Origin: an uncultured Phycisphaerales bacterium
Lineage (GTDB): Bacteria > Planctomycetota > Phycisphaerae > Tepidisphaerales > Tepidisphaeraceae
Length of the DNA stretch: 64,000 bases
Direction: 5' to 3'
Assembly: GCA_963844715.1 (NCBI GenBank)
Contig: CAWJPJ010000006.1
Span: 352,001 to 416,000, forward strand
How positions within the stretch are numbered: the stretch's first letter is position 1; every line of letters begins with the position of its first letter. The notes under the pieces are model-generated. The model saw nothing but the letters and a program-made list of their open reading frames with translations. It did not search any database and was not told where the DNA came from. Positions 39,149 through 54,390 of the stretch are shown here, piece after piece. The translations under genes were made by a program, and so were the position numbers.

Positions 39149-39739
39149 CGGTTCCTCCTCTAGTTAGTTGAACCCCAAACGACCCCAACGACGGGACGGT
39201 GGTGAGATACCTGTCGATGGTGTCAAGTCTTGATCGGACACTCCAACCCTTGTGTCGCTCGCGCGACACGACTGCGATGAATGAACATCGCGGTACAGAT
39301 TGCTGAGCGGATTAAAGAGGGAGAATCCGTCTCCTTCCCTCGCCCAGCGCCTCAGATATGTCTGCCGGAGAATCTTCTATAAGGAAGCGTCTTCTCCAGT
39401 GACCTCCTGACGGGCGGGAAAATACGGGTCGAACATGTGGCCGCTGCTATGGGTGCCTAAAGATTTGGTTAATGTTCCCGAAAAAAGCGCAATCCGTTTG
39501 GCAGGAGACGGCGCGCGGGAATTGTTTGGATCGGGTTAATATTCTGCTAACCGCTTAAAATTCGCCGTGCTCCCGTTACGCTAACGAAACGTTAATTGCA
39601 TTCGCTTATTTTCCTGCGGCGGCGCGGGCCATGTCTTGCGCTTCGAAAATGGAGTAGGGCGCTCTTTTCAAGATCCTGCATACATTTGAAAAAGATATTT
39701 GGCCTCGGTAAACGGAGTGCATCTGGAAGGAGAAACTTC

Positions 39740-40777
39740 ATGAGCGGGAATTCAAAGCGGGGAGGATTCACTCTAGTTGAGTTGCTGGTGGTCATCGGAA
39801 TCATTGCGATTCTGGTGGGAATTCTGCTGCCGTCGCTAACCAAGGCTCGCCAGCAGGCGCAATTGGTGGAATGCCAGAGCAATTTGCGGCAATGGGGGAT
39901 TGGTATCGAGGATTACTGCGATATCAGCTTCGGCATGTTGCCTTCCAAAGGGGTCGATGCGAGTACGATGCCCGGATACGCGCCCGCTAATGGTTTTGTG
40001 GGGTTTGACGACAAAAGCCTTTGGTTCAACGCGATTCCGCCCTTCGTTAATACGCAAAGCTACTATCAAATGCTGGTGGCGAATTACCAGGATCCGAAAG
40101 ACAATCCGCTACCCCAATATCAGTTTGGACAGAACGACATTTTTGTCTGTGCCTCCGCAGCGCCGGCCGGCCCTCGTCCCGGCCAGGACCCGCCGCTGGA
40201 TCCGCTTAACCAGAATATGTTCACGCAGTATGGTATCGACAGCAACAGCGTGATCCGGGTGGGCCTGCATCCCACGAAGTATTTCGATTTCGACTTCAGC
40301 TACTGCTTTAATTCACAGCTCACCGATCCGCAGAACCAGCCGGCGGGCTTCCAAGCATCCACTTATCCGCTGAGGATTTCCAAATGCAGTCCTGCCAGTA
40401 CGGTTGCGCTGATGTTCGAGAAAATATCGAACTATCGGGAGTACGCGTACGACAAGGGAGTGCAGGATTGGCTTAATTCGCCGGTTACCAAGGATGAATT
40501 TTCGGCTGCCTCGCCAGAATATACGAGCGGTCCGGAGATCGATTCCAGCGGTTTTTGCAAGAACGTATGCCAGCAGGACACCGACTGGACGCGTTTTGCG
40601 GTTTGCCACAACGGCGGCGGAAATGTGCTGTTTGCGGATGGACACGTAGCCTGGTTCAAATGGTCCGATGTCCAGCTTGGTCTATCTCAATTTCCGCTGC
40701 CTCAGAACACGCTGCCAAACCACAATGTGAACAATGCCGGGATTATTTGGTGTCCGCTTGGACCGCCAGACAAATAA
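39740..40777 (+). CDS. Prepilin-type N-terminal cleavage / H-X9-DG (DUF1559-like) protein
   Basis: GFTLVELLVVIGIIAIL..ILLPSL.KAR..A....CQSNLRQ; HNGGGNVLFADGHV. Confidence 0.9.
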   Translation: MSGNSKRGGFTLVELLVVIGIIAILVGILLPSLTKARQQAQLVECQSNLRQWGIGIEDYCDISFGMLPSKGVDASTMPGYAPANGFVGFDDKSLWFNAIPPFVNTQSYYQMLVANYQDPKDNPLPQYQFGQNDIFVCASAAPAGPRPGQDPPLDPLNQNMFTQYGIDSNSVIRVGLHPTKYFDFDFSYCFNSQLTDPQNQPAGFQASTYPLRISKCSPASTVALMFEKISNYREYAYDKGVQDWLNSPVTKDEFSAASPEYTSGPEIDSSGFCKNVCQQDTDWTRFAVCHNGGGNVLFADGHVAWFKWSDVQLGLSQFPLPQNTLPNHNVNNAGIIWCPLGPPDK

Positions 40778-40935: not shown

Positions 40936-43214
40936 ATGAGCGCAGGCGTCGGACAAACCCGGATTCAGGATGCGCTGCGGCTTCATCAGTCCGGGAAACT
41001 GGCGGAGGCGGAGGAAATCTATCGGCAGATATTGGAAACGCAGCCGCGAAGTCCGGAGGTGCTGCATCTTTTGGGGGTGTTGCGAGGACAATCGGGCGAT
41101 CCGGCAGGGTCGATTGAGCTTTTGAAGCGAGCCGTTGAGATCACTGCGAGTGATCCGGTTCTTTGGAACAACCTGGGAGAGGCTTATCGACAGGGAGCGA
41201 GACTGCCCGAAGCCATCGCGGCTTATCGGCGCGGGCTGGAGATCAATCCAAAATCGAGCGAGTCGCTGCGCAACCTGAGCATTGCGCTCGAGACTGTCCG
41301 GGCAAATGGACGAAGCGATGGCCGCGTGCCGTAGGGCGATTGCGCTGAGGCCGGATTATGCGGAGGCGCTCAACGATCTTGGAAATATGGTCGCCGACAG
41401 GAAACGGTACGCGGAGGCGATCACTGCGTACCGGCAGGCGATTGCGCATAGCCCGCGGTTCGCCAAGGCGTATTACAACCTGGGGATCGCGATGGCGAAC
41501 AACGGACAGCGGGCGGAGGCGGCCGAGGCGTATCGCGGCGCGGTCGCCGTCGATGGGAACTACGCGGAGGCGTGGAATAATCTCGGCTATGTGCTTCGTG
41601 AATTGGGGAAAATGGAGGAAGCGATCGCGGCGTTCGGCCGGGCAATGCAATCGCGTCCGGACATGGCGGAGATTCATCGCAATCTCGGGCTGGTGTTTTT
41701 CGAAATGGGCCGATACGAGCAGGCGATTGGCGCCTATCGGCGGGCGCTGGCGCTGAACCCGAATTATCCCGAAGGCCTGGTGAGTCTTGGGAACGCGATC
41801 AAGTCAACGGGACGGCTGGGTGAGGCCGTCGATCTATATCGACGGGCAATCGCGCTGAGCGGGGATTACGCGGATGCTTACACCGACCTGGGCAGCGCCC
41901 TCAAAGACCAGGGGGAACTGGACGAAGCAATCGCGGCGTATCGGCGCACGATGGAACTGAAGCCGGACGAGCCGCCGGCGCACAGCAATCTGATTTTCGG
42001 GCTGCACTACCATCCGGACGCGGATGCGCGGACGATCGCAGAGGAACACGCGAGATGGAACGCGAAGTTTGGGCGGCCAGGGCGCGGGGGATTGCGCGCG
42101 CATACGAATGATCGGAATCCGCAACGGCGGCTGCGGGTCGCGTATATTTCGCCGGATTTTCGAGATCACCCGGTGGCGCGATTTCTGCTGCCGGTGTTGA
42201 AGAATCATGATCATGCGGCATTTGATATCGTGGCGTATTCGCTTTCGCCAATGACGGACAGCACGACGGAAAGAATCCGCCCGCACATGGACCAGTGGCG
42301 GCAGATGGAGAGTCTGTCAGATCAGCAGGCGGCGGAGCAAATCCGAGCCGACGAAATCGATATTCTCGTGGACCTGGCCATGCACACGGGGGGAAATGCG
42401 CCTGCGCGCTATGGCGCTGAAGCCGGCGCCGGTGCAGTTCACGTATCTCGCCTATTGTTCGAGCACGGGATTGGAGACGGTGGATTATCGATTGAGCGAT
42501 CCTTATCTGGATCCGCCGGGGGAAGATGAGTCGGGCTATACGGAGCGGACGATTCGGCTGCCGAATACCTGGTGGGTCTATGAGCCGAGCGAGTTGGCTG
42601 GGGAAATTTCCACTGCGGTGATGGCCCCGCGTGGGGAGATTACTTTCGGCTGTCTGAATTCTTTTCGGAAAGTCAGCCGGCCTGCTATCGCCGCCTGGGC
42701 GAGAATTTTGCGAGAGGTCCCCGGGTCGCGTCTCTTGCTGCACTCGGCGGAGGGAAGTCATCGCGATCGATTACTGGGGCGGTTTGAAGAACACGGGGTT
42801 GGGCGCGAGCGAATTGAGTTCGTGGGATTTGTACCAATGGGAAAGTATTTTCAGCTCTATGACCGGATCGACGTGGCCCTGGACCCATTTCCTTATTGCG
42901 GCGGGACGACGACGTGCGATGCACTTTGGATGGGGGCGCCGGTGGTGACGCTTTCAGGACGGACGGCGGTTGGGCGCGCGGGGCGGAGTATTTTGTCCAA
43001 TGTGGGGCTGGAGAAGTTTGTGGCTCAATCCGAGGATCAATATGTGAAGATCGCGGTGGACCTGGCCGGGAATGTCGCGGAGCGACTGGAGCTTCGGCGG
43101 ACCATGCGCGACCGGATGCGGAATTCGCCGCTGATGGACGGGGCGAGTTTGGCACGGAATATCGAGGCGGCATATCGGGATGCGTGGCGGGAATGGACGA
43201 AATCGAGCGGCTAG
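40936..43214 (+). CDS. Second TPR O-GlcNAc transferase-like protein, GT41/SPINDLY family (two frameshifts)
   Basis: TPRs; RLRVAYISPDFRDHPV, IDILVDLAMHT, TFGCLN, DPFPYCGGTT, WMGAPVVTL. Confidence 0.88.
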
Positions 43215-45218: not shown

Positions 45219-45347
45219 CTATTTGGGGGTAGGAACCCTGGAGAAAAGGACGCCAAGTCCCTCTGCCATTGTGGGGTGAGCGAAGATCGTGTTTTGTAGA
45301 GTGGTGAAGGGGAGGCCGGCGATCATCGCCATCTGGATGACGGCGAG
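45219..45347 (-). pseudogene. C-terminal 42 aa of the interrupted pyridine nucleotide-disulfide oxidoreductase
   Basis: Reads LAVIQMAMIAGLPFTTLQNTIFAHPTMAEGLGVLFSRVPTPK*, containing the family HPTxxE motif; not in the ORF track. Confidence 0.88.
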
Positions 45348-45382
45348 TCGTTGTATTCACATTGCGCTCCTTGTCACAGGTG

Positions 45383-46174
45383 TCACCTGCGACGCCGTGA
45401 CCAGCGACCCAGTTTCGCCAATTCAAGATTCACCACATCGACATCAAACTCATTGGGATCGAATGATCCGCCGCACCACTGCATCGAGGATTCGTGTTCC
45501 TCATGACTGGGATCGGCGATCGCTTGCAAAAACTCCTGGTAGCCCCACGGCCCGCCCACGTCCTCCGGCGGACACCGCCGCTGGCCCCCGAGGCAAGTCA
45601 CGGTGGCCTTGCGATCATCTGCGATCGGTTCCACGGATTGGACCGTGATTGTGTGCATCCAACCGTCGCCAAAATCGTACAGGTACGTGAACTTCGTTCG
45701 CGCCTTTTGAATCAGCATCCCCAACACGACGCCACTTTCTTCCACGCCTTGATCCGGTTCCTCGGGGTCTTCGGTGAACTCTTGCCCGGCGATGGTAAAG
45801 CTGTGCAGATGGGAATCCGTCCAGCCCATGACGACTTGCAGGCTGTCGTGCAGCCGATCCAACGTGATCGAAGCGGGCACCATCAACTGCCGCCAGATCT
45901 TCGGCTGGACATCGTCAAGCACGATGCGGAGTTTGAAGCAATAGCCTTGAATAAAATCGCGGTCCCGCTTGCCGCCGCGGTGGACCAGGTCGGCGGCCAT
46001 GGCTGTCGCCTGCGGAGCCAGTCCCATCAGTTCGAACATCTCTTTCATGGATGCCGCAATATGCTTGTCGCTCAGGTCCGGCCGCTGGGCGCGAATCTGT
46101 TCGAGGGACTTGCCGGCGTTCATTTGGGTAGCGATGTCCAACGCCAGTGCGCTAATCTTAATGCTCTTTGCCAT
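45383..46174 (-). CDS. pRiA4b ORF-3 family protein with DUF433-like N-terminal extension
   Basis: PKIWRQL.VP, LHD.LQ..MGWTDSHLHSF, YLYDFGDGW.H, CPPEDVGGPWGY. Confidence 0.85.
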   Translation of the reverse strand: MAKSIKISALALDIATQMNAGKSLEQIRAQRPDLSDKHIAASMKEMFELMGLAPQATAMAADLVHRGGKRDRDFIQGYCFKLRIVLDDVQPKIWRQLMVPASITLDRLHDSLQVVMGWTDSHLHSFTIAGQEFTEDPEEPDQGVEESGVVLGMLIQKARTKFTYLYDFGDGWMHTITVQSVEPIADDRKATVTCLGGQRRCPPEDVGGPWGYQEFLQAIADPSHEEHESSMQWCGGSFDPNEFDVDVVNLELAKLGRWSRRRR

Positions 46175-48310
46175 GCAATTCCTTGTCACCATTTTGACTA
46201 CCCCTGTTAACTTCATCCTGGCGTGCCGGACCAAGCACGGCAGTTCTCAACTGTGTCGTGTTCTTGAACCTCTCCGCCAGATATTTCAATTGTGATTCAT
46301 CGGCACGCACGATCAAACGGCGAATCGGCTCGTCGCTATACCGTGCCTGCAACTGACCTCTATGGACCCAACTGCGAACCGTTCTTTCGCTGGCGCCTAT
46401 GTGACGCGCCAGGTCGGCGGTAGTCCACTCGTGTTCGTTCAACGGCGGCGATGGACGATGTTCCGGGGCCGGGCGATATCGCGAAAGCCATTTGCGGACG
46501 GTGCTGGCGTTAAATGGCAAGCCGCGTGGCGAGCGGTGCCCGGCAGTGTTGAGCTTGTTGGCAATTCCTGCCGATTTCACGCCTTGCTGATGCAGCGCGA
46601 TGATCATTTCATCAATGACGCCGTAATTGGCAAGTTGTTCGTGCCGTAACACGGGCCGCCGCAGGCGCACATAGCTGCGATGGCCGCCAACCCAGTGAAT
46701 CCACGCCTCGACCCATTCGCTGTGGCCTTCAACCTGCACCACAACCCGTTCGATAATCAGGCGCAGAATCGCCTTGCGGTCCTCATCCCGGGTGGACGGC
46801 GCGTGCCAGAGCGTGGGCAAATCGGACGCCAAACGTTGAATCTCCTCCTGTTCCCCCTCGCTCAAGAGCCGTGGACATTCCCGACGCCATCGTTCATGTT
46901 CCTCCATCAATTGCCGCTGTTGGCGTAGCGCCGTCTCCCAATTCGTCTCCAGCGTCCGCGCCACCAAGCGATTCTCAGGCTCTACCGCTTCATACTGACG
47001 ATGCGCGCGATCCGCCTCGTAGGCGACGCGCTCCAGTCGCTGACGCCACAACGCTTGGTCTTTTTCGCGTTGATTCTTCAAATCAGCCGCAACCTGGAGG
47101 CTGACTTCCAGCGCCGCCGGTTCCATGGCCAGCAATATCTGCCGCACAACTTCCTGATCCAGTGCCGATGCCGAGAGGCTTTGGCATGAAGGATCGGCAT
47201 AAGCGGTCTTCTTTCCTTCACAGCTATAGACGCCCTGGCTGGCCTTGCCGTAGCGGGTGAGCATGCGGTATCCGCAGCGGCGACAAACCACCAGCCCCGT
47301 TAATCGCGCCCGTCCATGTCGAATGGCGCCGCGGGATTCAATCTTCGATCGATTTTCGCGCATCTGATGCTGATTGGCTTCATACTGGGCCCAACTGATA
47401 TAAGCGGGGAACCGGTCACGGATCAATACCCGCCACTGGTCCCTGGGCAATCGCCGCCACCAGCAGTGCCCGTCGGGCCGTCTCTGTCGCCCATAGCGTC
47501 CATAAGTATAAGCACCGGCGTACATCGGATTGCACAACATGGCGCGAATCGTCGATAGATTGGGACGCCGCCATTGCAAAGTGCCATGATCGGGTCCGCC
47601 CTCAAGGCGAATCCCTATTCGCACGTTCTCATTCCGCAGTTGCCGTAATGTGCCGGTGGCCGTGCCAACCCGTTCAAACGCATCGAATACCCGCATCGCA
47701 ATGGCGCGTACCTGCTCATCGGGATCCTGGACAATGCGGCCGGCGGCGTCGCGAACATAACCAATCGGCAACCGGCTGAACAATTCGCCACGCTGCGCCT
47801 TCTGTCTGGCGCCTTGGAGCATCCGCTGTTTGAGAATGTGCAGTTCGGCCTCGGACATTGTCCCTTTGAGGCCCAGGAGCAGTCGATCGTTGTAGGCGGA
47901 TGGATCATAAAGCCCATCAAGGTCATAGATCAGCGTGCCAAACAGCGCGCACAACTCCAGCAGTTGATACCAATCTTTGCATAATCGGGCGAGCCGGGAC
48001 ATCTCCACGCCCAAGATCAAACCCACACGCCCCAACGCCACCTCCGCTAATAAGCGCTGGAAGCCCGAGCGGCCTTCGGCTGACGCGCCGGACCTGCCCA
48101 AATCTTCGTCATAAACCTGAACCAGCGCGCAGACCATCCGAGGCTAATCGCGTGATCAACCAACCCGTATTGCAACTGCGTCGATTCCCGATGCCGCTGC
48201 ACCTGATGAATGCTGGATTGGCGCACATAAACCACTGCCAGGCGTTCACGATGTTGCGAAGTGCATTTATGCTGGCCCACCGGCAGCGCCTCAATCGTGG
48301 TGCTGTTCAT
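46158..48310 (-). CDS. Large serine recombinase (resolvase + recombinase + Zn-ribbon + coiled coil + C-terminal HTH; frameshift at ~48135)
   Basis: YVRQSS catalytic motif, DEDLGRSG, SRLAR, NPMYAG, CRRCG..YSC, WTTADLARHIGASERTVRSW. Confidence 0.9.
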
Positions 48311-48487
48311 GAAGTGGTCTCCGAGTTAGATAGTTTTGCAGGATGCGGCTCATCACCGCTATAAGCTGTCGGCGCGGCCGATCCGGCAGGTGCTGCCACA
48401 GATCGTTGTGTGTTTGCGATCCGCTCAGCGGCCGCGGCGAGTCCCGCAGCTTTGGGAGCGGATCGGTCGTCGGAAAGGGTCAGACAT
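48291..48487 (-). CDS. Small hypothetical protein upstream of the recombinase (frameshifted)
   Basis: GGAGG SD plus ATG at 48487; C-terminal frame DLWQHLPDRPRRQLIAVMSRILQNYLTRRPLHEQHHD* overlapping the recombinase start. Confidence 0.45.
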
Positions 48488-48808
48488 GACGATCCTCCGT
48501 GATCGGATGAATGGAGCCGGCCCTTAATCCACTGGGCCAGCCGCAACAGTGCGTCGGCTCCAATTGTCGGTCGCCCGCCCGCCGAATTCAATGGTGTGAC
48601 AACAGCAGCATTCTGATCATAAGGGTGAGGACTTCGCCGGCTTCGGGGCCGATCATGGTGAAGCCTCGGATTTTCTGGCTGTTGGGGTCGATCAGGACTT
48701 TCATAAAGCCCTGGTTCTCGTCGATCGTAGCGGTTCGCAGGATCATGCTGGTCGGGACTTTGACTACCTGGACGGGTATCCCGCGGGTTTTGGCTTCGGT
48801 TTCGGTTA

Positions 48809-49834
48809 GAGCATTTCCCATTTTAAACTAGCGCCATCGATGCTGTTTTGCTAATCTCCGATTCAACAAGGAGGTTGCCATGGCATCGCAAACCGCTCTG
48901 ACCCGTCGATGGATCATGTCGGCGTATCGTGCCGGCAAAGGCACGAAGGAGATTTCCGCGATCTTCGGCCGATGCGAGTCGGCCGTCCGCCGCGTGCGAC
49001 AGGATGAACGTGAACGGGGGACGGCCGAACCGCTGCTTCATCTTCGTGGCCGCAAGGGGAAGTTGACCGGCGAGTTGAAGACTCGTTTGAGTCGGTTCGT
49101 GGCCGCCCGGCCGGATGCCACGCTCAACGAGATCAAAGAGAAGTTGGCGCTGGACGTGTCGCTGTCGACGGTCGACCGTTGGCTCAGGAAGCTGGGCCTC
49201 TCCTTTAAAAAAAGTCTCTCCACGCGTCCGAGCAGGATCGGCCCGACGTCGCCGCCGCGCGGACGCAGTGGCGTCGGCGGCTGAAGGACGTCGATCCCGA
49301 GCGTCTTGTTTTTGTGGATGAATCCGGGGCCAAGACGAACTTCACCCGATTGCGTGGCCGGTGCGGCCGCGGCGAACGGTTGTTGTGCAAGACCCCGGCC
49401 GGACACTGGAGCACGACCACCATGATCGCCGCGGTTCGGCTCGACGGCGCGACCGCCGGCGCGATTGTTCAAGGGGCGATGGACAGCGATGTTTTTGTCG
49501 CCTGGGTGCGTGAAGCGCTCGTGCCCAGCCTGCGAAGCGGGGACATCGTGGTGATGGACAATTTGCAGCCGCACAAACATTCAGAAGTGCGACGCCTGAT
49601 CGAAGCCGCCGGCTGCGAACTGTGGTTGCTGCCACCCTACTCGCCGGATTTGAATCCGATCGAGATGATGTGGAGCAAAGCGAAGCAACTGATCCGCTCG
49701 GCGGAGCCCAGAACGTTCGACACCTTGGTCCGGGCTGTGTTCGCGGCAATGGACGCCGTTACGACCGAAGATGCCGCGGGATTTTTCCGCCATTGCGGTT
49801 ACCGCCAGCCGCTAGTTTAATTTGGGAAATGCTC
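48809..49834 (+). mobile_element. IS630-family insertion sequence with TA target duplication
   Basis: TIR gagcatttcccattttaaactagc versus gagcatttcccaaattaaactagc; TA at 48807-48808 and 49835-49836. Confidence 0.92.
48880..49820 (+). CDS. IS630 transposase (orfA/orfB, slippery TTTAAAAAAAG at ~49204-49214)
   Basis: PDATL.E HTH region; FVDESG, VMDN...HK, LPPYSPDLNPIE. Confidence 0.9.
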
Positions 49835-51127
49835 TAATCCGATTTGTGCGACCTGCGGATCGGTGAAAAGAACGGACGGGATGAGGCGGTCGCGCGTTGA
49901 ATGGGATTTGCCGGCGAGGTTGTCGCGGACGACGCGGAAATCATCATACGATACATGCGTGAATTGGGGGCTGCCGGCGCACTCGCCCATGGCCCAGATG
50001 TCGGCGGCGGTGGTTTCGAGACGGTCGTCGACTTTGATAAAGCCGCGTTCGTCGAGTTCGACGCCGGCGAATCCGAGGCCGATTCCGGCGGTGTTGGGGA
50101 CACGGCCAACGGCGGCAAGGATGTCGGTGGCGCGGAGGGTTTGGTTGCCGCTGCGGGTACGCACGTCCAAAGTCACGTTGACGCCAGAGCGGCCTTGCAC
50201 GCTGACCACGTCTGTTGAGAGAAGAATTTCGATGCCGTCGGCGGACAAGATGCGCTGGATTTCGGCGGCGACGTCGGGGTCTTGGTTGGGGAGAAGCTGC
50301 TGGCCGTGCTGAATAATCGTCACGCGGCTGCCGAAACGCTGGTAAGCCTGGGCAAATTCTAGGCCGACGTAACCGCCGCCGAGAACAACGAGATGCTCGG
50401 GGAGGCGATCGAGTTCGAGGATGTCGATGTGGGTCATGGGGCGGCTGTCCGCCAGGCCCGGAGTTGGGGGGATCAGGGCGTGCGTGCCGAGGTTCAGGAA
50501 GACGCGCTCGCCTTTAAGGATGCGGGTTCCGCCATCGTTCAGTTTTACTTCGACGGTTTTGGGTTCGATGAACGTGGCTTCGCCGAGGATAAGATCGGTG
50601 CCGGCGGCCTTATAAAGGTCGAGGTGCGCCGCGATCTCGGACTCGACCATTTTGCGCTTTCTCTGACGAACGGCGGCCATGTCGATTGACGTTGGACCGG
50701 TACGGGACCCAAAATGAGCCGCGTGATGAACCAGATCGGCGACTTTGTGCGCTCCAGATAACGTTCTTGCTGGGAAGGCAATTGATATTCGGGCACGATC
50801 CGCCGATCCATCGCCGTTCGACGACGACGTTCTGCTCCTTGGTTTTGCCAAAATGCCAGGCCAGGCACTTGCCGGCCTCGCCGCTTCCGATGATGAGATT
50901 TTTGACGGTCTCCGTGCCCATGTTCAGGTTCCTTCCGATGACTCCAGTTGGTGAAAATGTTAGGCAGGCGAAACGGTATTGTAAGCGGTGAAAATTGCAA
51001 TAAATTTCAGTTCCGGCGAATTTTTTCCCTTGGCTAAAGCTTTGGGCGTGGGTTAGCTTGGCAGCGGCTGAAATCGCGCTTCTGGAAGTTATCCACAACT
51101 TGATCCGACTCGGCGAGGAGCGTTTCC

Positions 51128-52854
51128 ATGTCGCAAAAACGCATCGCGGACGTTTTGGTTGATACGCTGATCGCCGCGGGGGTGAAGAGAGTTTACGGCG
51201 TCGTTGGGGATTCGCTGAATGCAATTCTTGAAGCGATCGGGAAACGCAAGGAAATCGAATGGATTCACGTTCGGCACGAGGAAGCCGGCGCGTTTGCCGC
51301 AGGGCGCAAGCACATCTGACGGGGGAACTGGCGGTTTGCGCGGGGAGCTGCGGGCCGGGGAACGTGCATCTGGTGAATGGGTTGTTCGATTGCCACCGGA
51401 GCCGGGTCCCGGTTTTGGCTATCGCGGCGCAAATCCCCAGCAACGAGATCGGGAGTGCGTATTTTCAGGAAACGCATCCGGATCAGTTCTTTAAGGATTG
51501 CAGTCATTACGCCGAACTGGTTTCGCAGGCGTCGCAGATGCCGCGGGTTTTGGAAATCGCGATTCAGACGGCGCTGACGATGCAGGGGGTTTCCGTGGTG
51601 GTCATTCCCGGAGATGTGGCGACCCGGGAGATACCGGAGCGCAAGCCGAGCGCGAGCGTGCGGCGGGCGACGCCAGTGATCAGACCATCGGACAAGGAAA
51701 TCGACGACTTTGCGAAGGTCTTGAATCAGGCCAAGACCGTGACGATTCTCGCCGGGGCGGGGTGCGCGGGAGCGCATGCGGAACTGATGCAGTTTGCGGG
51801 GAAACTGAAGTCGCCGATCGTGACGACGCTGCGCGGGCGGGAGCATGTGGAATATGACAGCCCCTACGATGTGGGAATGACGGGGTTGATCGGATTTGCA
51901 TCCGGGTATCACGCCATCATGCAGTGCGAGACGCTGGTAATGCTGGGGACGGATTTCCCATACACGCAGTTTTATCCGGAGAAGGCGAAAGTGGTTCAGG
52001 TAGACGTGCGCGGGGAAAACCTCGGCCGGCGCACCCGGCTGGATCTCGGATTGATCGGGGACGTGAAGGAGACAATTAAAGCCGTCCTCGGCAAGATCAC
52101 GCCCAAAACTGACGATGCCCATCTCGTCAGATTCTTAAATCATTACAAAGATGTTCGGAAAGGTTTGGACGAACTGGCGGTGGGAAAGCCGGGGAAGAAG
52201 CCGATGCATCCGCAGTTTGTGGCGCGGGTGATCGACGAGACGGCTTCGGATGATGCGATTTTTACGTGCGACGTCGGCACGCCGACGATCTGGGCCGCGC
52301 GGTATCTGAAGATGAACGGGAAACGGCGGCTGATGGGGTCGTTCAATCATGGATCAATGGCAAATGCCATGCCTCAGGCGATTGGCGCGCAATTGGAATT
52401 CCCCGGCAGGCAGGTGGTGACGTTCTCGGGTGACGGCGGGATCGCGATGCTTTTGGGGGATCTGCTTTCGATGCGGCAGCTCAAGATCCCTGTAAAGATG
52501 GTGGTCTTCAACAACGGGGCGCTGAGTTTCGTGGAACTGGAGATGAAAGCCGCGGGATTTTTGGAGAACGGAACGGATCTGGTCAATCCGAATTTCGCGG
52601 ACTTGGCCAAGAGCGTGGGCATCCGCGGGTTCCGGGTCGAAGACCCGGCGGATTTGAAGGGGGCGATCAGCGAGGCGTTTGAGCACGATGGACCAGCGCT
52701 GGTGGATGCCGTGGTCAATCGCATGGAGCTTTCCATGCCCCCCACCATTACGCTGGACCAAGCCAAGGGATTTAGTTTGTGGGCGATCAAGGCGGTGCTG
52801 AGCGGTCGGGCGAGTGAACTGGTGGATTTGGCGGCGACCAACCTATTGCGCTAA
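51128..52854 (+). CDS. poxB: Pyruvate:quinone oxidoreductase (frameshift at ~51300)
   Basis: [52 protein letters not shown]. Confidence 0.92.
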
Positions 52855-52883
52855 TCGATGGTTTCCTTAACGGAGACACAGCC

Positions 52884-54390
52884 GTGAGCCCTTCCGATCC
52901 CAAAACGGCTTCGCAATTCGATGTGGTTCTCGTCGGTGCGGGGATTATGAGCGCGACGCTGGCCGTGTTCCTAAAAGAACTTCAGCCGGACTTGAAGATC
53001 GCGATTTTTGAGAAGCTGGACGGAGCGGCGGAGGAGAGTTCAAACGCCTGGAATAACGCGGGGACGGGGCACGCGGCGCTGTGCGAATTGAACTACACGC
53101 CGGAGGACGCCAATGGGACGATCGATATTTCAAAGGCGCTGGGCGTGAACACGGAGTTCGATCTGTCCCGGCAATTTTGGGCTTATCTGGCGAAAAAGGG
53201 ATCGATCAAAGACCCGCAAGCGTTCATTCATTCCGTGCCCCACTGTTCCTTTGTGCGCAGGACCGGAAAATGCGGCGTTTCTCAAAAAACGATTCGACGC
53301 CCTGACGGCGCATCACTGCTATCGAGGGATGGAGTTCGCGGATGACAAAAAGGTGATGGCGGATTGGTTCCCCCTGGTCATGGAAGGGCGCGACCCGGCC
53401 GAAAAACTGGCGGCGACACGCATGCGCACAGGGACGGACGTGGATTACGGGGCGCTGACGAATATTCTGCTGGGGTCTCTAAGCGGCAAGGAGGGTTGCA
53501 CGATCGAGTATTTTGCCCGCGTGCAGGACCCCCGGCGGGACGGAAACCTCTGGTGCGTTCGCGTGCGCAACGAACAGACCGGCCTGCATCGAGACGTGCG
53601 GGCGAAATGCATCTTCATCGGGGCCGGCGGCGGATCGCTGCCGCTGCTGCAAAAGTCAGGCATACCCGAATCGCGCGGCTACGCGGGTTTCCCTGTCAGC
53701 GGAATCTGGTTGCGGTGCGACAACCCGGAGATCGCATCGCGGCACCACGCGAAGGTATATGGCAAGGCGTCGGTAGGCTCGCCGCCGATGTCCGTGCCGC
53801 ATCTGGATACGCGGCATATTGAGGGAAAGCTCTCGCTATTGTTTGGGCCGTACGCGGGGTTTTCAACCAAGTTCCTCAAACACGAATCGTATCTCGACCT
53901 CTTTGGGTCGATCGATCCGGAGAATTTGCTGCCGATGCTGGCCGTTGGTCGAGATAACGTGGCGCTGACGGAATACCTGATCGGTCAGGTGCTGGAGACC
54001 GAGAACCAGCGCCTGGCTGCCCTGCGGCAATATTTTCCCAACGCGCAGAAAAGCGACTGGCGCGAGGAAGTGGCCGGGCAGCGGGTGCAGATCATTAAGA
54101 AAGACCCGGTGCACGGCGGAATCCTGCAATTCGGCACGGAACTGGTCTTCGCGGCCGATCGATCGATCGTCGCCATGCTGGGAGCTTCGCCGGGGGCTTC
54201 GACGGCGGTGTGGATCATGGTCAAGGTCCTCGAGCAGTGCTTTGCCAAGCAACTCAAGGATAGCTGGATGGGGAAGATGAAAGAGATCATCCCGTCGTAC
54301 GGGCATTCCCTCATCGACGAGGCGGATTTGTGCCGGAAAGTTCGAGCCGATACGGCGGCGGTTTTAAATCTGGAGAACGTGAACGCATGA
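52884..54390 (+). CDS. mqo: Malate:quinone oxidoreductase (frameshift at ~53258)
   Basis: [61 protein letters not shown]. Confidence 0.93.

Follow-up and report, generated by a model that had tools for sequence, protein, structure and literature searches.

We analysed a stretch of 64,000 nucleotides from an uncultured Phycisphaerales bacterium (contig CAWJPJ010000006.1, positions 352,001 to 416,000; hereafter the window), in which a gene for a class I pyridine nucleotide-disulphide oxidoreductase is split by a small mobile element. The overall best explanation, with a probability of about 0.75, is a transposon of insertion-sequence (IS) size that excises and reintegrates by means of one large serine recombinase. 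It measures 3,282 bp plus one core dinucleotide, with no duplication beyond the core, and only orfA, orfB, the recombinase gene and a pRiA4b ORF-3 gene lie between its ends, with no mobilisation or conjugation genes. The host gene and the attachment (att) sites are arranged as follows.

49835-50921, minus strand: 5' part of the host oxidoreductase gene, with an approximate start and the redox motif CPNINC
48807-49836, plus strand: IS630-family element with a TA duplication and 28-bp inverted repeats, not part of the recombinase element
48629-48806, minus strand: middle part of the host gene, ending in the left arm of attB
48627-48628, minus strand: attL core dinucleotide TC
48595-48626, minus strand: left 32-bp element arm, ending TGTCACA and holding the -10 hexamer TATGAT (48621-48616) of a putative junction promoter
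45347-45378, minus strand: right 32-bp arm, starting TGTGACAA, with the orfA ribosome-binding site (RBS) AAGGAG (45372-45367), the start codon GTG (45360-45358) and the -35 hexamer ATGTGA (45362-45357)
45345-45346, minus strand: attR core dinucleotide TC, at a junction bridged by contigs of three of the four sequencing runs
45219-45344, minus strand: tail of the host gene, with the end of the dimerisation domain and the HPT motif

Read on the minus strand, the oxidoreductase breaks at GEV-CTC (48629-48627) and continues past CTC at 45347-45345; the element separates profile positions 16-77 of Pfam Pyr_redox_dim, on its left, from positions 78-106, on its right. In-silico removal of the element and of the IS630 copy gives a frame from 50851 that encodes 440 residues with one terminal stop. 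The rebuilt protein is 51% identical over 410 residues to an unbroken homologue of the same genus and is gap-free at both junctions, which bears out the end-to-end alignment on which the first-pass annotation of this DNA had staked its boundaries. The same annotation had proposed that precise excision would restore the frame at this junction. This holds, but excision alone would not restore the gene as a whole, because the IS630 element, a second, independent insertion with 14 near-identical full-length copies genome-wide, also breaks the host gene. Rescue of the host tail by a start codon in the right end was considered and rejected, as this codon is out of frame.

Joining the two element ends rebuilds a 66-bp attP that is symmetric about TC, with 19 of 32 arm bases complementary, the highest value of 20 core positions (next 13; shuffle p=6e-5). 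The 26-bp target resembles GGCGAA-nn-CC-TC-nnCn-TCATCCA, and relatives retain both the TC core and the 32-bp TGTGACA arms. Together, the gap-free rejoining of the host gene, the arm symmetry and the conserved ends of the relatives uphold a transposon-sized, phage-less element with a TC core and with the attP and attB first proposed. The two inverted arms are indeed symmetric about TC; their proposed length of 28 bp omitted the inner 4, and counted from the TGTGACA ends they measure 32 bp.

The element carries the following features, all on the minus strand.

48307-48627, minus strand: orfA body, 106 codons, with a conserved ALLRLAQWI helix; headless when integrated, its stop overlapping the recombinase start (ATGA)
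48291-48498, minus strand: orfB, with RBS GGAGGA (48498-48493), ATG (48487), slippery CCCTTTC (48479-48473), a hairpin (48465-48417) and a body that runs to the stop at 48293-48291, giving about 65 residues after a -1 shift
46158-48310, minus strand: large serine recombinase, 717 residues, with catalytic, recombinase and zinc-ribbon domains, a coiled coil and two extra C-terminal helix-turn-helix-like domains
46180-46190, minus strand: relic of a right end, the word GGTGACAAGGA, which matches the true right end in 10 of 11 bases and lies at the site of the relatives' right end
45383-46174, minus strand: pRiA4b ORF-3-like cargo gene, 263 residues (PF07929, E 2.8e-63)

The recombinase and the pRiA4b gene were correctly recognised in the first pass. 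The "small ORF" that it listed with them consists of two genes and not one, orfA being split by attP and orfB needing a -1 shift.

The recombinase matches the resolvase catalytic domain PF00239 (E 2e-19), with the YxRxS residues Y28, R30 and S32 invariant in 32 sequences, as well as PF07508 and PF13408, with the zinc-ribbon cysteines C343, C346, C364 and C376 invariant and helices at 398-442 and 448-478. The two extra helix-turn-helix-like domains lie in about 130 further C-terminal residues. Its top structural matches are the SPbeta, phiC31 and Bxb1 integrases, at 14-18% identity; DUF4368 is absent among the 14 Pfam families that match it at E up to 1, and its top NCBIfam match is XisF, at 119 bits against a cut-off of 375. 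In the window the frame is one base short near 48130, and the gene had been described as frameshifted. This description does not survive: contigs of three of the four runs have the extra base and a full 717-residue protein on record (P0001) is identical to the window recombinase except for the break and residue 336, so that the frameshift is most likely an assembly error and the enzyme intact. Contigs of all four runs also differ from the window at position 47305.

A single target is contradicted by a relative and by two of the sequencing runs, where the left end lies at a related 26-bp site within a parB-like gene. Contigs of runs X1 and X4 depart from the window at 48638 into other DNA reading KLAREEAKGV, a string preceded by the EAEAF motif in a ParB_N protein that the element's own genome encodes. 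The closest relative with DNA (locus L059, 77%) sits in the same parB motif, has near-same ends, lacks the cargo and measures 2,651 bp. L093, L059 and L100 have short flanks without a Pfam match, and their targets were assigned by translation and by tblastx to the genome's ParB genes. Two parB-like genes with an empty target site are present in the own genome; 75 TC-cored sites of this genome match the L059 target as well as the oxidoreductase site does, and both empty parB sites rank among the top three. Because the two occupied targets, oxidoreductase and parB, have 18 of 26 bases in common and few genome sites score as well, the recombinase would be semi-specific, with the oxidoreductase as an apparent near-cognate site. 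We are very confident of the element, its att sites and its multiple targets as described here. Two regions of the own genome with ssb and parB-like genes (L039, 1345-1905; L041, 1055-1612) show a further feature: in both, parB ends early beside tyrosine-recombinase genes, a short way downstream of the empty target.

The RBS and start of orfA lie in the right end of the element and its body in the left end; the joined form encodes a 111-residue OrfA, and integration removes the RBS and the first five codons. In the rebuilt attP of 14 of 16 loci, an ATG or GTG stands exactly 14 bases before the core, against none at the 14 other in-frame positions, and an RBS-like word precedes this start in the window and in most TC-core relatives. 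The orfA frame is open for 97-124 codons beyond the core in all 16 rebuilt junctions (other frames 1-57), and 64 of 70 loci have no stop in it over 80 codons (other frames, 1 and 6). The recombinase start reads ATGA in 58 of the 70. From this pattern it is highly probable that orfA is whole only on the joined form. Neither orfA nor orfB of the window matched a Pfam or NCBIfam family; an atlas match of orfB at 0.87 serves as a lead only. In relative L156, orfA is longer and shows a likeness of 0.93 to DUF5372 clusters. At the rebuilt junction the -35 hexamer of the right end sits 17 bp from the -10 hexamer of the left end, forming a putative promoter that appears strong in some relatives and weak in the window element. 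No promoter or terminator was detected on the coding strand of the integrated element. OrfA would need transcripts running round the circle, because the junction promoter lies downstream of the orfA start. Joins of right end, TC and left end are assembled in relatives L075 and L076, as a circle or a tandem.

A conserved helical peptide, LWxxLPxxxRxxL, encoded by orfB, was found by motif before the recombinase in 71 of 92 loci. A slippery run lies ahead of it in 58 of 66 distinct loci; in 56 the RBS and start need a -1 shift, and in 4 they are in frame. When the runs were scored, leaving aside 9 loci with the orfB stop outside the slice (the 66-locus count includes all), 47 of 49 proved to be C7 or C8 ending in one phase, against a background of 1 in 219,943 nt. 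The window and L059 have instead a tandem -1 heptamer, C-CCT-TTC, with a hairpin 7-8 nt downstream that is strong in both (-32 kcal/mol in the window). H_HH.U_UU.Y and C_CCC_CCC are given as efficient frameshift motifs of Escherichia coli in the accessible part of Sharma et al. (PMC4066793). On these grounds orfB is quite probably made by recoding.

The structure model of OrfB has two helices. In the model of its complex with the recombinase, which scores 0.70 (top of three controls, 0.00; the mark used is attained by 116 of 157 solved pairs and by 2 of 215 mismatched pairs), OrfB is placed on recombinase residues 394-414 and 478-519, that is, on the base of the coiled coil. The model runs agree in at least 80% of contacts, with a partner pLDDT (predicted local distance difference test) of at least 67. 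The model supports binding of OrfB to the recombinase. Known directionality factors bind near the coiled-coil base of their integrase. A directionality factor is the most likely role of OrfB, because it is modelled on that base, and we hold this assignment tentatively, at slightly under even odds.

The relatives have their right end at the recombinase stop or immediately after it, whereas the true end in the window follows the stop of the pRiA4b gene. By its position the pRiA4b ORF-3 gene is cargo, lying between the relic and the true right end, and AAGGA of the relic is likely its RBS. No pRiA4b homologue was found in any of the other loci compared, many of them short. A 7-base direct repeat, GGTGACA, flanks the cargo gene (46184-46190 and 45381-45387 of the window) and is possibly a trace of its capture.

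The recombinase family is large, with at least 8,000 protein matches (all 8,000 candidates scored) and 439 plasmid records; only two related loci lie in viral contigs. Close matches are patchy: with the own genome counted, they occur in 12 of 401 phylum genomes and in 13 of 401 class genomes. The class tally and one search behind the same-genus comparison include one unpublished genome, G004, on which nothing else depends. Among the 401 genomes the left-end DNA pattern occurs in the own genome only, and a scan of genome contigs with the single recombinase protein gave one partial locus. The right-end 16-mer occurs at 10 loci in viral contigs, none with a recombinase, and we attribute these to chance. 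One genome holds 7 copies of a 2.6-kb, 34% relative with 6 flank pairs, and one plasmid record has a family recombinase at up to 15 places. Distant relatives L096, L090 and L128 lie in transposase genes at a VV|ERT motif. Pfam confirms this target in L096 and L090 alone, each match falling slightly short of the cut-off; the motif is entered in opposite orientations, with core GA in L096 and L090 and TC in L128. Other arrangements were seen among the relatives. In L062, L065, L071, L074, L067 and L194 the right half of the target is near-identical to the 12 innermost bases of the left arm of the element itself. L157 has its left flank in common with L156 and its right flank with L165 of one genome, which suggests a rearrangement between copies, and L158-L168 comprise six copies of a 37% relative beside short tandem repeats, with flanks shared beyond the element.

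The excise-and-reintegrate reading would work as follows. The element would move through a circle, and the joining of its ends would act as a switch, bringing the two promoter hexamers together and supplying the RBS and start of orfA. In the integrated state, host read-through would drive expression, orfA would be headless and OrfB would be rationed by the -1 frameshift; excision would be rare, occurring when read-through and frameshifting supply both recombinase and OrfB, the latter permitting it as a directionality factor. On the circle, the junction promoter and coupling to OrfA, whose stop overlaps the recombinase start, would raise the recombinase to high amounts, and the element would reintegrate at parB-like or look-alike sites.

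Several observations weigh against this reading. The parB assignment of the run flank depends on 18-30 loose letters, and neither blastn nor protein search found a second copy of the element in the own genome, which is 85% complete. The first-pass annotation had proposed to look for the empty attB and for circular attP junctions; for this copy, neither a circle junction nor an empty oxidoreductase site occurs in the contigs of the four runs, and contigs drop rare forms. The 16 rebuilt junctions are hand-picked loci with both ends, from about 8 lineages and not independent; two of them, L093 and L079, lack the -14 start, each having an in-frame ATG further upstream. The junction promoter has a perfect or near-perfect consensus (at least 10 of 12) in 5 of the 16, with only 8 of 12 in the window. 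No stimulatory hairpin shared by the whole family emerged (mean z -0.6 across 49 loci), and solved complexes of integrases with their recombination directionality factors exist at 17-18% identity, a likeness that may partly explain why the complex model passes.

The nearest rival keeps the element and changes the part played by OrfB, which would be an obligate subunit or chaperone and/or be made by transcriptional slippage or as a +1 OrfA-OrfB fusion on the circle. We take this as possible, at odds clearly below even. The frequency of orfB among the loci is as expected of a needed part, and the geometry of the C7 run would also accommodate a +1 shift out of the orfA frame or an RNA with one C added; for an IS element, the accessible part of PMC5009743 documents slippage at runs that contain C. 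The window and L059, however, have the tandem -1 heptamer with its hairpin and not a C run, and distant members L157, L102 and L180 have the equivalent RBS and ATG in frame, pointing to that ATG as the start. It is unlikely that the window represents one haplotype of a single rearranged copy, with its left end in parB and its right end at the oxidoreductase tail. No listed contig bridges the left oxidoreductase junction, as such a copy would explain, while the right one is bridged in three runs, and flank swapping does occur among relatives (L157 with L156 and L165). Yet the 178-bp piece between repeats is easily lost in assembly, depth in run X1 is higher on the element (8-9) than on the flanks (5-6; not a copy-number measure), and two targets are used either way.

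A dead relic immobilised by the frameshift would fit the broken recombinase frame near 48130 and the single genome copy. We judge this still less likely, as three of the four runs carry the extra base and the runs also correct a one-base break near 50748 in the 5' part of the host gene, P0001 is intact, and so are the element ends and all frames. Least probable by far is a regulated, site-specific interruption of the oxidoreductase in the manner of XisF/skin elements. The clean in-frame interruption and the top NCBIfam match to XisF speak for it; against it, IS630 also splits the gene, the same left end lies in a parB-like gene in two runs, and a same-genus genome has the gene unbroken and no recombinase match. 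Developmental XisF/skin elements have a single dedicated target, in contrast to the second target and the IS630-broken gene found here.

A promoter formed at the circle junction is known from Tn4451. Tn4451/Tn4453 (TnpX) and Tn5397 (TndX) share with the window element one large serine recombinase, a 2-bp crossover and low specificity, as far as the accessible part of PMC5704250 goes; they also have a circular form, which for the window element is a prediction. The window element lacks the mobilisation, conjugation and resistance genes of Tn4451 and Tn5397, is half their size or less, and has two accessory ORFs, of which attP splits one and the other is frameshifted, and a 717-residue recombinase with two extra helix-turn-helix-like domains. 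In the same part of PMC5704250, TnpX is described as needing no directionality factor. By gene content, the window element is not a Tn4451-type member. The multi-targeting recombinases of Durrant et al. (PMC10083194, accessible part) are related enzymes that enter unrelated target genes with a fixed core and a loose motif, and that text says nothing about the anatomy or the accessory genes of the elements. For the window enzyme two targets are seen, and for the 34% relative six flank pairs; 63% of that clade has DUF4368, which the window recombinase lacks, its motif being GC-rich with a TC core. The IS607 family has, in the source text available, a small serine transposase with an N-terminal DNA-binding domain together with TnpB, whereas the window recombinase has 717 residues with the catalytic domain first and no TnpB accompanies it. 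Large serine recombinases are treated as tools in PMC13137831, the accessible part of which makes no mention of this layout, and the element is not named in that of PMC10970691.

The nearest relative with a name is a repeated 3.3-kb element of DUF5372 gene and recombinase on pNGR234a of Sinorhizobium fredii (NC_000914), which we take to be NGRIS-4. Its recombinase is 40% identical over 655 residues, its three copies sit at K|AKVE-like motifs of transposase genes, and each of them carries in the right end, 14 bases ahead of the core, a GTG that shares the frame of its DUF5372 gene. It differs from the window element in two further ORFs, a TT core, a full DUF5372 domain and the absence of pRiA4b cargo; by eye, window orfA is similar to DUF5372 in the C-terminal helix only. 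Phage serine integrases with their directionality factors (SPbeta SprA/SprB, phiC31, Bxb1) have the same domain order and fold and recombine attP with attB at a 2-bp core, and the modelled place of OrfB at the coiled-coil base is a further likeness. The window element differs in having no phage genes, several targets and, in OrfB, a partner that matches no Pfam or NCBIfam family. Integration is also known to divide one of the element's own genes at the att site in SSV1-type integrases, Mx8 int and integration-dependent phage repressors. What differs here is that an accessory ORF is divided, which loses only its RBS and first five codons and whose stop overlaps the recombinase start.

Elsewhere in the window, frame changes break genes in 40936-43214 and 51128-54390 (TPR/glycosyltransferase-like, pyruvate oxidase-like and malate:quinone oxidoreductase-like), and from these broken frames the assembly probably carries many single-base errors. 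In the IS630 element two ORFs meet at an A run (49206-49212), the usual frameshift site of IS630-type transposases. A prepilin-type protein is encoded at 39596-40777, and its H-X9-DG motif suggests that the host is planctomycete-like.

A serine-recombinase mini-element inside a gene is of a known kind; what is added here is a partner rationed by frameshifting, a predicted interface for it, and parB as a target. We found neither the family nor its split helper gene nor its frameshift described in the literature searched, with most subscription papers, ISfinder and supplements outside its scope. Gene callers would miss both helper genes because one is headless and the other out of frame. To our knowledge, little is understood of what decides between excision and integration in serine-recombinase transposons that lack phage regulators, and the number of known directionality factors is small. 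We propose tentatively, somewhat short of even odds, a very large family of IS-sized serine-recombinase transposons that would mostly parasitise conserved motifs of other mobile elements, with direction set by three layers. With the same reserve, these would be the junction promoter, an attP-assembled helper with coupling to the start of the recombinase, and, limited in amount by the conserved -1 frameshift, a directionality factor that belongs to a new family. If this circuit holds, it would be testable in 2.5 kb, with attP, two natural attB, an intact enzyme, a 65-residue directionality candidate with its predicted interface and the conserved frameshift, and the abundant family may be a source of compact, semi-specific integrases.

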